Shown one piece after another: positions 3,475 to 53,493 of a DNA stretch of 64,000 bases. Below the pieces are notes generated by a model, which saw nothing but the letters and a program-made list of their open reading frames with translations, was not told the DNA's origin and made no database searches. Source of the DNA: a virus. The stretch lies in IMG/VR virus record IMGVR_UViG_3300025674_000015. The stretch is one strand, 5' to 3'. A program made the translations under genes and the position numbers. The first letter of the stretch is position 1. Each line of letters starts with the position of its first letter.

Positions 3475-3482
3475 ACTATTTA
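3475..3482 (+). promoter_or_regulatory. Putative late promoter ACTATTTA
   Basis: Motif recurs upstream of about ten late/structural genes. Confidence 0.65.
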
Positions 3483-3516: not shown

Positions 3517-4635
3517 ATGTCTTCTATGCTAGAGCAAGCTATTATCGATGCAGAAGCATTAAGAGAAACAGCAATCAAAAATGCTGAACAACAATTAATT
3601 GAGCAATATGCAGATCAGATCAAAGAAGCTGTTGACTCCATGTTGGAACAAGACGACCCCATGGGAGAGGATAATCCCGAAAAAACCCCTGAAGAATCTA
3701 ATCAGGCCGGAAACGTGCAGGGACTTCCTTCTGCTACTTTGCAAGACCCGGATGAAGAAGACGAAGAAGCTATTGAGCTTGAAGTTACCATGCCAAAAGA
3801 CCCTGAGTCTTTATTGGATTTAAAAGATAAAAAAGGCCCTTCTAGTCTCCAAGAGTTTGTTTCTATTGATTTAGATCTTCTTGAAGAGCAAATCAATCTT
3901 TTAGAAAAAGACTGCGCTAGTGGACATTCCAAATTGGAAGAAGAAGAGCCGGATGTTATCTTGGAAGACGATCTTGAAGAAGAAATTGAAATTGATGAAG
4001 AACTTGATATTCTTGAAGAAGAAGAATTCGAGATTGAAGATGGCGAAGACGATGAACTGGAACTGGAAGATGATGAAGAACTTTCTGCTCTTTTGGAAGA
4101 GCTTATTTTCGATGATGAAGAAGTCCCCCATGGCCATCTTGGCGCGCCAACTCCAAGAGAATATGAAGAAGAAGATGACAAAGATAAGATCAGAGAATTA
4201 GCTGATTCCTTGGAAGATGAAAACCAAGATCTTAAAGAGCAAAATTACAGAAGAAAACAATCCTTGAAGAAACTTCAAGCAGATTTACATGAGCAGCAAA
4301 AAGTTAACGCTGCTCTTAAAGAACATTTAAACAATGTAAATGTTTCAAATGCAAAATTGTTGTACACGAATAAAGTTTTGAGTAGCACCTCCCTGAATGA
4401 GCGACAAAAAGTTAAAATTGTCGAAGCCATTTCAAAAACTGATTCCGTACAAGAAGCGAAGGTTATTTACGAAACCCTTCAAAGCTCAGTGGGTTCGCAA
4501 GAGAAAAAGCAACCAAAATCACTTAGCGAAGCAGTATCTAGAAAACCTTCCCTGTTCTTGGCAAGAACCCAAGAACGAAAGCAGCCTGCCCATCCTGAAA
4601 CTAACAGGTGGAAAAAACTGGCTGGAATTAATTAA
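3517..4635 (+). CDS. Prohead scaffolding/core protein
   Basis: Very acidic coiled-coil protein directly upstream of the MCP; many L-x-E sites; C-terminal RWKKLAGI. Confidence 0.8.
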   Translation: MSSMLEQAIIDAEALRETAIKNAEQQLIEQYADQIKEAVDSMLEQDDPMGEDNPEKTPEESNQAGNVQGLPSATLQDPDEEDEEAIELEVTMPKDPESLLDLKDKKGPSSLQEFVSIDLDLLEEQINLLEKDCASGHSKLEEEEPDVILEDDLEEEIEIDEELDILEEEEFEIEDGEDDELELEDDEELSALLEELIFDDEEVPHGHLGAPTPREYEEEDDKDKIRELADSLEDENQDLKEQNYRRKQSLKKLQADLHEQQKVNAALKEHLNNVNVSNAKLLYTNKVLSSTSLNERQKVKIVEAISKTDSVQEAKVIYETLQSSVGSQEKKQPKSLSEAVSRKPSLFLARTQERKQPAHPETNRWKKLAGIN

Positions 4636-4657: not shown

Positions 4658-6505
4658 ATGTCTATTCTGAAAACTTTGACTGAAGGCATTGTCGAACGTG
4701 ATCTCCAAAAAGAAGGTGCTGCTCTCTTGAACAAATGGGAGCGCACTGGTCTTTTGGAAGGTCTCGAAAAAGATTCCCAGCGACAGGGAATGGCTCGCCT
4801 TCTCGAAAACCAAGCAAAACAGCTTTTGAAAGAAGCTTCCTCCATGGCCGGTGGCGATGTTGAAGGTTTCTCTGCTGTTGCTTTCCCGATTGTCCGTCGC
4901 GTGTTTGCTTCTTTGATTGCAAACGACCTTGTTTCCGTTCAGCCCATGAGCCTCCCCTCTGGACTGATCTTCTTCTTGGATTTTAAATACGAAGATCCCC
5001 AAGCTGCCGGCTCGCGAAATGGTGTCGACGAAGGCGATTCCCTGTATGGTGGTGGAGTTGTGGCTAGCCAAATCACTGGTGGTGTTTCCGACATCACTGA
5101 AGAAGGTGGTGGTTTCTACAACTTGGCCAACGCATTTTCTTCGCCCACTGGTTCTCTTGGGCTTACGGATGGCGGCGCAACGACTGCCGCTGCCATTTCG
5201 AATGATCACGTTTCGGACGCGCTAAACGGTAGTGATACTGTTTTGACTTCCGCTGGTGTTGCTATTAGCGCACTTTCGGAAGCGCAGAAGAAAGCTATCC
5301 GATTTGATCCGGATGTTTTGGCTTCGACTTCTACTGATATTATTAGCCTTGTTGTTGTTAAGCTTACGACTGCAAACATGGCAAAAATCAACAAAGATAT
5401 GCTGCCTTCCCTTGAGATTTATGCAGGCACGACCGCGCCCAATACCTTTGGTGGTGGTAATGCTCGCGTCATTCGTCGCCTTACGGAACTGGGCTATCGC
5501 GGCACCGATGGTGTTTTGAATGCCAGTTCAAAAGCGCAGCACATCTCTTTCTATGTTCAAGCCGACACCGGCGCTTCGATCGCACTCCAAGCTAGTCCTC
5601 GACTTCACTTCGCTCAAGTTGATGCATTTGAGAGTAGCAATGCTCTCGGTTCTGTCCGTGGCGCTGATACTTGGGGTCTTGAAGGCGCGGCTGACGCCAA
5701 CACTAGTTTTGATGGCGTGAATCGCGGCTCTATCCCCGAAATCGACATTAAAGTTGATTCGATTGCTGTGACTGCAATCACCAAAAAGCTGAAAGCAAAA
5801 TGGTCTCCGGAGCTTGGTCAAGACCTCAACGCATACCATAACTTGGATGCAGAAGTTGAACTTACCTCGATTCTTTCCGAGCAGATTGCTCTGGAAATCG
5901 ACCGCGAGCTTTTGAACGACCTGATCAAAGGCGCAACTGCTGGTACTTACTACTGGTCGCGTTCTCCCGGTCTGTTTGTGAAGCGTGACACCGGCGTTGA
6001 GCTTGGTGCAGCCTCTGCTGCTCCCGACTTCACCGGTACTGTTTCCGAGTGGTACGAGACTCTGCTTGAGACCGTCAATGACGTGTCCGCTCAGATTCAC
6101 CGTAAAACTCTCCGAGGTGGAGCAAACTTCCTTGTTACTTCTCCCGAAGTTGCAAACATCATGGAATTCACCTCTGGCTTCCGTGCTTCCGTGACTGCTG
6201 ATGTTGACCGTGGTACTGCTGGTGCTTTCAAAACCGGTACCATCAGCAAGAAGTTCGACGTTTACGTTGATCCTTACTTCCCCCGTAACCTGATCCTTGT
6301 TGGTCGCAAAGGAAACAACTTCCTTGAGTCTGGTTACGTTTACGCTCCTTACGTGCCACTGCAAGTCACTCCCACCATCTTTGGTGTTGAAGACTTCGTG
6401 CCGCGCAAGGGTGTCATGACCCGATACGCCAAGAAGATGGTTCGTCCTGATTACTATGGTCTCGTCGTGGTGCGCGGACTCTTGGGTGAAGAAGGCGGTA
6501 GCTGA
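4658..6505 (+). CDS. Major capsid protein (T4 gp23-like), with a large central insertion
   Basis: LLENQ, FPIVRRVF..LIANDLVSVQPMSLPSGLIF, KLKAKWSPELGQDL.AYH, EIDRE, YAPYVPL, GVMTRYA motifs. Confidence 0.97.
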   Translation: MSILKTLTEGIVERDLQKEGAALLNKWERTGLLEGLEKDSQRQGMARLLENQAKQLLKEASSMAGGDVEGFSAVAFPIVRRVFASLIANDLVSVQPMSLPSGLIFFLDFKYEDPQAAGSRNGVDEGDSLYGGGVVASQITGGVSDITEEGGGFYNLANAFSSPTGSLGLTDGGATTAAAISNDHVSDALNGSDTVLTSAGVAISALSEAQKKAIRFDPDVLASTSTDIISLVVVKLTTANMAKINKDMLPSLEIYAGTTAPNTFGGGNARVIRRLTELGYRGTDGVLNASSKAQHISFYVQADTGASIALQASPRLHFAQVDAFESSNALGSVRGADTWGLEGAADANTSFDGVNRGSIPEIDIKVDSIAVTAITKKLKAKWSPELGQDLNAYHNLDAEVELTSILSEQIALEIDRELLNDLIKGATAGTYYWSRSPGLFVKRDTGVELGAASAAPDFTGTVSEWYETLLETVNDVSAQIHRKTLRGGANFLVTSPEVANIMEFTSGFRASVTADVDRGTAGAFKTGTISKKFDVYVDPYFPRNLILVGRKGNNFLESGYVYAPYVPLQVTPTIFGVEDFVPRKGVMTRYAKKMVRPDYYGLVVVRGLLGEEGGS

Positions 6506-6537
6506 TAATAATCACCTGATTGTTTTATAATTTTATG

Positions 6538-6568
6538 AGCCCACTTAGAATTCTAAGTGGGCTTTTTT
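6538..6568 (+). terminator. Rho-independent terminator after MCP
   Basis: Palindrome AGCCCACTTAGAATTCTAAGTGGGCT followed by T-tract. Confidence 0.85.
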
Positions 6569-6579
6569 ATTATTAGTCA

Positions 6580-6587
6580 ACTAATTA
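6580..6587 (+). promoter_or_regulatory. Putative late promoter ACTAATTA
   Basis: Variant of recurring motif, immediately after the terminator. Confidence 0.55.
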
Positions 6588-6591
6588 AAGT

Positions 6592-6682
6592 TAACTTGTG
6601 ATTGTTCTCCTAGGTTGAGGCCACTAACCTTTGAAGGAGCATGCTCGAAGTGGCTGGGCATGTTTCGTGAAAACTCAAGTTA
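6592..6682 (+). ncRNA. Candidate structured RNA (three-way junction with kissing loops) in 5' leader
   Basis: P1 6592-6598/6676-6682; P2 6612-6616/6626-6630; P3 6636-6646/6656-6666; loops GGCCACT and AGTGGCT are complementary. Confidence 0.6.
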
Positions 6683-6713
6683 TCGATAATTTATTTTTAA
6701 AGGAGAAACTAAA

Positions 6714-7604
6714 ATGGGTAATCGAAGATTAGGAACAAAAAGATTAGAATCTGTTTTGGACAACATGCTTTCTCATTCTACTTTGAATGGTTTGAATGGT
6801 AGTCCTTTTAGTATTAGAAATCCGGATAGAATTTATCTGGAAGAGTTTTTTAAACGACGACCCTCGCTTAACGCCGATCTTACAAACGCGACAGAGGCCA
6901 CTCGAATGGTTGCAAACCCGGACTGGGAATTACTTGGCAGCTCTGGGGGCGGTGCAGTTGCTACTGGCGATGCTACATTTGACGGACCTACCGGTCTTCT
7001 CAAATTAAATCTCGATGCAACCGATCAAGATGCGGTAACTTTGTTTCCTCACCAAGACTCAAACCAAAGTAAATGGGCCGTGGCTGGCATGTGGGGCTCT
7101 GAAAACCAAGTAGAATTTGAATGCTTGATTAGAACCGGGGACAATATCGCAACGCAAACTATCTTTGCAGGATTAAAACTCGCAGATGATTCTGGGAATA
7201 ATTATGCATATGCAACTGACTCTGATCAAGTTTGTTTTTGGTATTCCACCGATGATACCGAGGGTGCGTTTACTACAAATGCCAACCTGCATTGTATTGT
7301 TAGTTCCGGTGGTGACGATTATATTTCTGACTTGGGAATTGAATTAGCTAGTGATACGAATTATCGCTTGGGAATTACCTTTGATGCCCAGAGAAGACCT
7401 TCTGCATGGGTTAATGGTGTACAATACAGCTTGACGTCTGCCACGACAGCTGGAGGGGTAACAACCGGCGTTGGTACTGTTAAAGGCCCCGCGCTAGCAG
7501 ACGATAAAGATCTTTTCCCTACGGCTGGGATCGTTGCTCGTGATGCAGCCGCAAGACATATGTATGTGGGATACTTTAAGTGTTCTAGAATTGTTTTTGA
7601 ATAA
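6714..7604 (+). CDS. Putative virion structural/decoration protein (beta-rich)
   Basis: Follows MCP; strong SD; G/T/D-rich. Confidence 0.55.
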   Translation: MGNRRLGTKRLESVLDNMLSHSTLNGLNGSPFSIRNPDRIYLEEFFKRRPSLNADLTNATEATRMVANPDWELLGSSGGGAVATGDATFDGPTGLLKLNLDATDQDAVTLFPHQDSNQSKWAVAGMWGSENQVEFECLIRTGDNIATQTIFAGLKLADDSGNNYAYATDSDQVCFWYSTDDTEGAFTTNANLHCIVSSGGDDYISDLGIELASDTNYRLGITFDAQRRPSAWVNGVQYSLTSATTAGGVTTGVGTVKGPALADDKDLFPTAGIVARDAAARHMYVGYFKCSRIVFE

Positions 7605-53260: not shown

Positions 53261-53493
53261 AAGAATGTTGTAAGAAATGTGTCTTATTAAAGGAGGCGTG
53301 TGGACAAAATAAATGTAGAATGTGGATTGATTTTGAAAAAGATCTTAACTGTGCTTTGATTTCAATTCAGAATGGAGGCTTGACACAGACGGACATTTCA
53401 AATAGATTGAAAATCACACCAGCTAGAGTGTGTCAAATAGAAAAAACGGCACTAATTAAAGTTGCAGAAGCGTTTTTAGAAGAAAAAGTTTAA
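53257..53493 (+). CDS. Small Cys-rich protein with sigma70 region-4-like HTH
   Basis: LTQTDIS.RL.IT..RV.QIEK.AL.K. Confidence 0.7.
   Translation: MKECCKKCVLLKEACGQNKCRMWIDFEKDLNCALISIQNGGLTQTDISNRLKITPARVCQIEKTALIKVAEAFLEEKV

Follow-up and report, generated by a model that had tools for sequence, protein, structure and literature searches.

A leader RNA family 3' of the major capsid gene of T4-like phages, with a kissing three-way junction, a putative anti-Shine-Dalgarno switch and a probable dimer signal

To our knowledge, little is known of how tailed phages proportion their virion proteins when the late promoters are equally strong, and few late-gene leaders of dsDNA phages are structured RNAs with tertiary contacts. 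The question is raised directly by the window, i.e. the whole stretch of 64,000 nucleotides analysed here (IMG/VR record IMGVR_UViG_3300025674_000015), which derives from a large T4-like myophage and in which a folded leader lies between the major capsid gene and the next gene. What does this leader do? The relevant part of the locus is arranged as follows.

3517-4635: acidic scaffold-like gene, upstream of the major capsid gene
4658..6505, + strand: major capsid protein gene, T4 gp23-like (phrog_138, E 1.6e-71; PF07068 Gp23), the 5' neighbour of the RNA
6537..6572, + strand: intrinsic terminator of the capsid gene (12-pair stem and T run), between the capsid gene and the RNA
6580..6587, + strand: late-promoter-like motif ACTAATTA (consensus ACTATTTA), putatively a promoter from its position
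6714..7604, + strand: the putatively regulated gene, encoding a 296-aa protein in which a ConA/L-lectin-like beta-sandwich comes after a basic N-terminal arm and a helix
8009: gp13-like neck gene, in the downstream head/neck region
10803: tail sheath gene, downstream

The capsid protein (615 aa) carries a long insertion at about residues 150-335, which lies outside the gp23 profile match and varies between relatives, and a hairpin similar to the terminator is found 3' of the capsid gene in relatives as well. Between 27306 and 63566 the window encodes RecA, a class II ribonucleotide reductase, an N6/N4 methylase, DNA polymerase III alpha, UvdE, adenylosuccinate synthetase, IMPDH/GMP reductase, a Cpn60 chaperonin and five tRNAs. 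The nearest capsid proteins from isolated phages are less than 55% identical, and many of the relatives are marine assemblies (TARA-labelled contigs). The late motif occurs in the window at 3475, 6580, 10757, 15447, 36093, 53451, 53518 and 60698, and its sense strand resembles the T4 late promoter TATAAATA read in reverse complement; no description of the motif was found in the literature searched. The initial annotation had noted that such motifs usually end shortly before a start codon, which holds for six other + strand copies (ending about 21-40 nt before one) but not for the copy at 53451. The motif accompanies all 150 RNA copies collected here, with 27-31 nt from its end to loop 2, and the first helix of the RNA (P1) begins about 4-5 nt 3' of it; transcription would thus probably start near the first base of P1. 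A contig identical to the window (L532:1-110, JGI 3300012523, possibly from a Chesapeake Bay metatranscriptome) starts at window position 6609, inside the RNA, and contains the next genes and not the capsid gene. If it does stem from a metatranscriptome, it would fit a transcript beginning at the RNA leader; the contig was given no weight in the conclusions.

The elements of the RNA are the following, the fold with the Shine-Dalgarno sequence (SD) free being termed ON and that with the SD covered OFF.

6592-6598/6676-6682 (outer) and about 6604-6607/6669-6673 (irregular inner), + strand: helix P1, closing the three-way junction in the ON fold
6605..6611, + strand: pyrimidine strand with core CUCC, the anti-SD of the modelled OFF fold, lying mostly inside P1 and the P2 base in the ON fold
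6612..6630 (6612-6616/6626-6630), + strand: hairpin P2, closing pair G6617.U6625, its loop holding the kiss strand 6620-6624
6636..6666 (6636-6646/6656-6666), + strand: hairpin P3, closing pair G6647.U6655, its loop holding the kiss strand 6650-6654
6620-6624 with 6650-6654, + strand: kissing helix of 5 bp, all five paired in 150/150 copies
6680..6689, + strand: palindrome P4, sharing four bases with the 3' strand of P1 and exclusive with outer P1
6701..6707, + strand: SD of the 6714 gene, with a GGAG core in all copies

The initial annotation had placed the motif, P1 (its outer helix), P2, P3, the loop segments (6619-6625 and 6649-6655), the pyrimidine strand, the SD and the ATG at 6714 exactly, but had overlooked the irregular inner segment of P1 and the whole of P4.

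In order to learn which of these elements are conserved, relatives were picked in four ways: by the downstream protein, by the capsid protein, by an RNA pattern in which the variable kiss positions were left free and, so that circularity be avoided, by the codons with which the downstream gene begins. Pooling viral and metagenome contigs gave 150 distinct RNA copies (83 representatives below 93% identity), of which 142 lie directly 3' of a major capsid gene, six are cut off and two are separated from it by one small ORF. Every copy precedes a gene with a basic N-terminal peptide, typically MGNRRLG. Conversely, among 173 distinct leaders chosen by the downstream N-terminus alone, loop 2 is present in 154, the remaining 19 being truncated, of another leader type, before a tandem second gene or unrelated. 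Such a tandem pair of MGNRRLG-family genes (L477:780-1373 and from 1394) has the RNA leader before the first gene only. A covariance model finds one RNA copy in the window, with no second copy there, and detects the RNA in 11 of 80 relatives picked by their capsid protein. A pattern scan of 185,579 GTDB prokaryote genomes, which covers close pattern matches only, gave 94 matches, none of which passes the covariance model. From these two results the RNA is judged, on the sequences sampled, to be optional and restricted to one part of this phage group. In a blastn search against 50,697 phage records no match to the RNA was obtained, and hence no copy from an isolated phage. A DNA pattern made of the loops alone returned nearly all chance matches in viral contigs (one true copy among 100 loci tested) and was abandoned. 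The copies fall into three junction subtypes, A (n=54, including the window), B (n=81) and C (n=15).

The three-way junction with kissing loops, first proposed from a single sequence, is supported by covariation in these relatives. Over the 83 representatives, 96.9% of the cells of P1, P2, P3 and the loop-loop helix are paired and two-sided changes occur in 14 of 24 pairs; none of 500 shuffles reaches the observed covariation values, and slid registers drop to 26-48% pairing. P2 is 100% paired with three compensatory pairs, P3 92.8% with six, and P1 97.4% with two-sided change at three pairs, its inner segment being wholly replaced in subtype C with pairing retained. The parsing patterns preset three of the five kiss pairs, which hence do not count as covariation. 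The two variable ones are Watson-Crick in 150/150 copies, pair 3 being C-G in 140 and G-C in 10, and pair 4 A-U in 113, G-C in 22 and C-G in 15. On a tree built without the kiss columns pair 4 changes seven times and pair 3 three times, each side as often as the pair, these counts being approximate owing to the short alignment and many open forks. P1, P2, P3 and a 5-bp kiss are thus conserved, as judged from covariation. The original claim of a 7-bp kiss has to be shortened accordingly: 24/150 copies lack the outer U-A pair, and on the 5' side of loop 3 from 2 to 6 bases may stay unpaired, for which reason the outer G and U are better taken as invariant G.U closing pairs of the hairpins. On the single sequence the fold is only modestly above chance (z -1.85 for the leader alone; 9 of 200 shuffles), but in the relatives the mean folding z of 40 is -2.7 and the helices covary.

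The invariant letters lie in the kiss, in the two G.U closing pairs and in the adjacent C-G pair, and not in the junction. This distribution bears on two alternatives. Were the junction the active site of a metabolite riboswitch or of a self-cleaving ribozyme, the topology would be that of purine riboswitches and hammerheads, and an SD expression platform is at hand. However, the junction strands vary in length and sequence among the subtypes, unlike ligand pockets or catalytic cores, neither a hammerhead core nor an Rfam match was found, and the downstream gene is structural, with no metabolite link; we regard this explanation as highly improbable. The same distribution favours an operator in which the kissing core would bind a protein, most simply the basic arm of the 6714 product, which would repress its own synthesis once the capsid sites are full, an alternative taken up below with the protein.

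Whether the leader could control translation depends on the pyrimidine strand, put forward at the outset as a junction strand complementary to the SD. The complementarity stands and is compatible in nearly all copies, but in the ON fold of subtypes A and B the strand is mostly paired. Its core is CUCC in 143 of 150 copies, CUUC in five, with G.U pairing kept, and CGCC in two, where the pairing is broken and the duplex is worth -3.9 kcal/mol, and in 82 of 83 representatives no other 12-mer of the leader pairs better with the SD than this region. Among the natural variants, the CGCC core is seen at L001:2870-3003 and L424, and CUUC with a matching G-to-A change in the P2 base at L433, L460, L481, L522, L524 and L025. 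At position -1, a C variant occurs only together with G in the SD (four related copies), and the anti-SD/SD pairs proper to each copy are slightly better than permuted ones (2/2000 within subtype, 52/2000 overall) when kinship is ignored. Because the SD is fixed by pairing with 16S RNA and cannot covary freely, an anti-SD helix cannot be proved by covariation, and in A and B the SD-complementary pyrimidines are needed for ON pairs too; both points weigh against a switch, as do the two broken copies. Yet no letter of CUCC is paired in the ON models of all three subtypes, and all four letters are conserved nonetheless; CUCC is retained in subtype C, where it is single-stranded.

Constrained modelling yields two folds. 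With the SD free, the three-way junction forms and, in A and B, holds most of the anti-SD in inner P1 and the P2 base; pairing the anti-SD to the SD instead gives a four-way cloverleaf built from P2, P3 and P4, modelled in A and B and not in C. The difference OFF minus ON is -3.1 (A), 0.0 (B) and +6.6 (C) kcal/mol, values uncertain by several kcal/mol since ViennaRNA ignores the kiss, and the window itself gives -30.0 (OFF) versus -26.7 kcal/mol (ON) with the same omission, its minimum-energy fold being that with the anti-SD covering the SD rather than the three-way junction. In A and B, the probability of outer P1 in prefix folding is 0.86-0.98 as long as the SD is still missing and 0.38-0.56 thereafter, in models of equilibrium and not of kinetics.

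The cloverleaf brings in P4. In subtypes A and B a palindrome of at least 10 nt is found at this site in 134 of 135 copies, against 13.5% of shuffled sequences, and its central tetramer is self-complementary in 135/135, being UGCA in 92, UCGA in 32, ACGU in nine, UUAA in one and GCGU, with wobble, in one. The centre changes about eight times on the RNA tree, and P4 is absent from the 15 copies of subtype C. Self-complementarity of the loop is not required in a hairpin, and the P4 hairpin is weak (-0.9 to -2.4 kcal/mol), while the duplex of two molecules is strong (-17 to -20). In the OLE and GOLLD RNAs, switching among palindromic tetramers has been taken as evidence of cross-chain pairs (10.1101/2024.12.08.627333). 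As the P4 centre switches among self-complementary tetramers that a hairpin loop would not need, pairing between molecules is supported, and P4 is probably the signature of an RNA dimer. When two molecules are cofolded, P4 pairs between them in 78 of 79 A/B representatives and, with the kiss omitted, SD access drops from 0.12-0.39 to 0.02-0.03. Subtype C gains about -10 kcal/mol by helix swapping alone, without P4, so the dimer energy specific to P4-bearing copies is only 3-4 kcal/mol. P4 is unlikely to be a DNA operator, given that its fixed half-sites lie at variable spacings (2, 4 or 6 nt), that G.U-compatible variants exist and that the types are mixed on the tree; perfection of palindromes by template switching is a minor alternative.

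Intermolecular pairing also recalls an idea of the initial annotation, namely an assembly RNA whose loops pair between molecules. In this form, a multimerising structural RNA resembling phi29 pRNA would be released from the message and act in head assembly or packaging, its loops and P4 pairing between molecules. The junction with complementary loops and the position next to the capsid gene are in keeping with this, and the switching of the P4 centre is the pattern read as cross-chain in OLE and GOLLD (10.1101/2024.12.08.627333). What argues against it, unless a 3' end is made by processing, is that no terminator-like site lies between P4 and the start codon and no conserved 3' end precedes the SD, the SD and ORF following within about 15-36 nt 3' of P1. 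The RNA is moreover never found without the downstream gene and, being present in only 11 of the 80 capsid-picked relatives, must be dispensable for this head type, while arms of similar length, and a longer loop 3 going with the shorter P3 of subtype C, suit a kiss within one molecule. A released assembly RNA is therefore very unlikely, and the part of the idea that survives is pairing between molecules through P4, not through the loops.

The reading preferred here is that the RNA is the 5' leader of a late transcript and acts in cis as a translational switch for an optional accessory capsid-surface gene, to which we assign a probability of about one half. It is favoured because the RNA always lies in cis to this gene family and the two modelled folds differ in SD access, and also because these folds are close in energy and the probability of outer P1 drops once the SD has been made. 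During transcription the three-way junction would form first and hold the anti-SD strand, so that the SD emerges free (ON). Formation of P4, whether as a hairpin within one message or as a duplex of two, would then open outer P1, with which P4 shares its 5' arm, and the freed anti-SD would pair with the SD, closing the cloverleaf of P2, P3 and P4 (OFF). The message would be translated only until it refolds, and the accessory protein would in this way be proportioned to the capsids. The kiss presumably keeps P2 and P3 side by side and may slow or gate the refolding, for which time, message concentration or a bound protein are candidate triggers. In a more specific and rather doubtful version, the message would sense its own concentration without a protein, P4-P4 pairing opening P1 and letting the anti-SD cover the SD, so that late-gene output limits itself. 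A switch has to accommodate subtype C (15/150 copies), which has no P4 and strongly prefers ON in the models, as well as a modelled fold balance that takes no account of the kiss. An alternative is a static leader, a compact structure with a paired 5' end that shields the message from nucleases, leaves the SD open and never switches. In its favour, P1 begins so close to the motif that the 5' end would be paired, and subtype C is modelled as permanently ON. But a static leader leaves unexplained both the conservation of a single-stranded anti-SD in subtype C and the upkeep of P4, a competitor of P1, in 135/135 A/B copies, and is quite unlikely. The early suggestion that the leader sets the amount of the 6714 protein accordingly stands as regards its constant position in cis and the two modelled folds that differ in SD access, though not beyond inference as regards switching.

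The 296-aa product of the 6714 gene (structure model pLDDT 84.7) matches the lectin/GH16 fold in a fold search (Z 15.8, rmsd 2.9, 195 residues aligned), with lectin-like phage proteins among the matches, and has no PHROG match; it is a probable accessory capsid-surface protein, its place on the capsid being suggested by gene position. Its N-terminal arm (R4, R5, G7, R10) is conserved in other copies on unrelated C-terminal folds, the commonest of which (about 190 aa) consists of one jelly roll, its best fold-search Z being 7.0 and phage capsid cement chains scoring Z 6.2-6.9. A capsid cement role for this family was not accepted as demonstrated, the fold scores being only middling. In many sister phages core head genes come immediately after the capsid gene, and their leaders are mostly of about 20-30 nt; accessory genes with a related N-terminal arm have type-specific leaders mostly of about 40-140 nt, and the leader type follows the N-terminal peptide across sister phages. 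The accessory genes may thus encode interchangeable, non-essential capsid-surface proteins that need separate dosage control. That the leader type tracks the peptide, and that the arm is kept on unrelated bodies, are also points in favour of the protein-bound operator introduced above. Such a correlation is, however, also expected from the physical linkage of a leader with the first codons, kissing leaders precede type-2-like N-termini in L025, L057 and L162, and the basic arm may just anchor the protein on the capsid, its binding to RNA being putative. The operator is on balance unlikely as the sole explanation, and it is compatible with the preferred switch, of which it could be the trigger.

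Other leaders behind capsid genes were seen in the same collection. A type 2 leader (59-116 nt), before MG[TS]KR[VI]GLAR genes, consists of a base helix, to which some copies add two inserted hairpins and so form another three-way junction (L015, L021-L023, L030, L032, L036, L038, L042, L043, L045-L047, L049, L059, L073 and L074; L009 and L328); it looks like a separate undescribed motif. In a third type, found before MGTKRVGWARI genes, an SD-like run is paired within a hairpin to an anti-SD-like one, and 3' of this hairpin comes a conserved 10-nt near-palindrome with a GUUA arm as in P4 and with a G.U variant (L018, L035, L037, L040, L050-L052, L060 and L077); the near-palindrome is possibly the same dimer signal as P4. 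Leaders with a short AAGGC hairpin precede MAK[VL]GR genes (L013, L017, L048, L062, L066 and L084), and leaders of about 95-110 nt precede MA.xQNIARL genes (L044, L054 and L064).

At the gathering threshold the only matches of the window in Rfam 15 are tRNAs; up to E 10 there is no match over P2-P3, and five loci of other subtypes gave no Rfam 15 match either. The sequence thus matches no Rfam family, and the initial annotation had already stated that it matches neither purine riboswitches nor phi29 pRNA. No description of this RNA was found in the literature searched. It may be an unnamed entry among the 8,495 automated IMG/VR candidates of 2023 (PMC10690425), the main text of which contains no kissing-loop element. 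The RNA is thus a real family, undescribed as far as checked; to a putative leader switch of the anti-SD kind it adds a kissing core and, probably, a signal for dimerisation. The family is compact (about 125 nt) and deeply sampled, with clean covariation and three natural subtypes, and its natural mutants (broken anti-SD, no P4) make the mechanism testable in vitro and in laboratory reporter strains even though the host is uncultured. With the family come a natural kissing module, whose five pairs can be exchanged freely, and, in a bacterial virus, a candidate signal for mRNA dimerisation.

The closest functional parallel is with the levivirus MS2, in whose maturation leader a 7-nt SD is covered by its upstream complement, which closes a cloverleaf of three hairpins once a transient fold has permitted brief translation (PMC4615214). 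As modelled for A and B, an SD-complement lying upstream can here too seal off the SD in a fold of several hairpins, and it is hidden at first by an alternative fold that forms earlier (by prefix folding at equilibrium, the helices of this fold covarying); the minor virion protein of MS2 is comparable to the putative accessory capsid-surface protein. Yet the message is that of a dsDNA myophage and not an ssRNA genome, a covarying three-way junction with a kiss serves as the alternative fold in place of one small hairpin, the self-complementary P4 has been added, no sequence resemblance was found, and the switch, proven in MS2, is modelled here. In the 5' region of the SRP Alu domain of Bacillus subtilis, two hairpins of a three-way junction are joined in a loop-loop pseudoknot of five Watson-Crick pairs (PMC4231752), as in the present RNA; the UGU conserved there between the hairpins, however, occurs in only about 18/150 copies and not in the window, and the present RNA is an mRNA leader with no helix 5 or S domain and no Rfam SRP match. 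Purine riboswitches likewise combine a three-way junction, a loop-loop contact and an SD-type platform, as found here, but the present junction strands contain no conserved ligand pocket, no Rfam match was obtained, the gene is structural and the five-pair Watson-Crick kiss covaries freely. The hammerhead core consists of CUGANGA and GAAA around the junction; CUGANGA is in none of the J2/3 strands listed, and a GAAA-like run of the window is not conserved. phi29 pRNA, a separate essential transcript of small podophages, has a three-way junction and two complementary loops and can multimerise. The junction and loops are shared, and covariation does not separate intra- from intermolecular kissing, but the present RNA is an optional leader of large T4-like myophages, found in 11/80 relatives and running into an SD and ORF. 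The phi29 pRNA is cited as a natural multimer together with OLE, ROOL and GOLLD, large stand-alone RNAs (GOLLD often >800 nt) with kissing loops and cross-chain palindromic tetramers (10.1101/2024.12.08.627333). Kissing loops and switching self-complementary tetramers are common to these and to the RNA described here, which differs from them in being a leader of about 100 nt with one palindrome.
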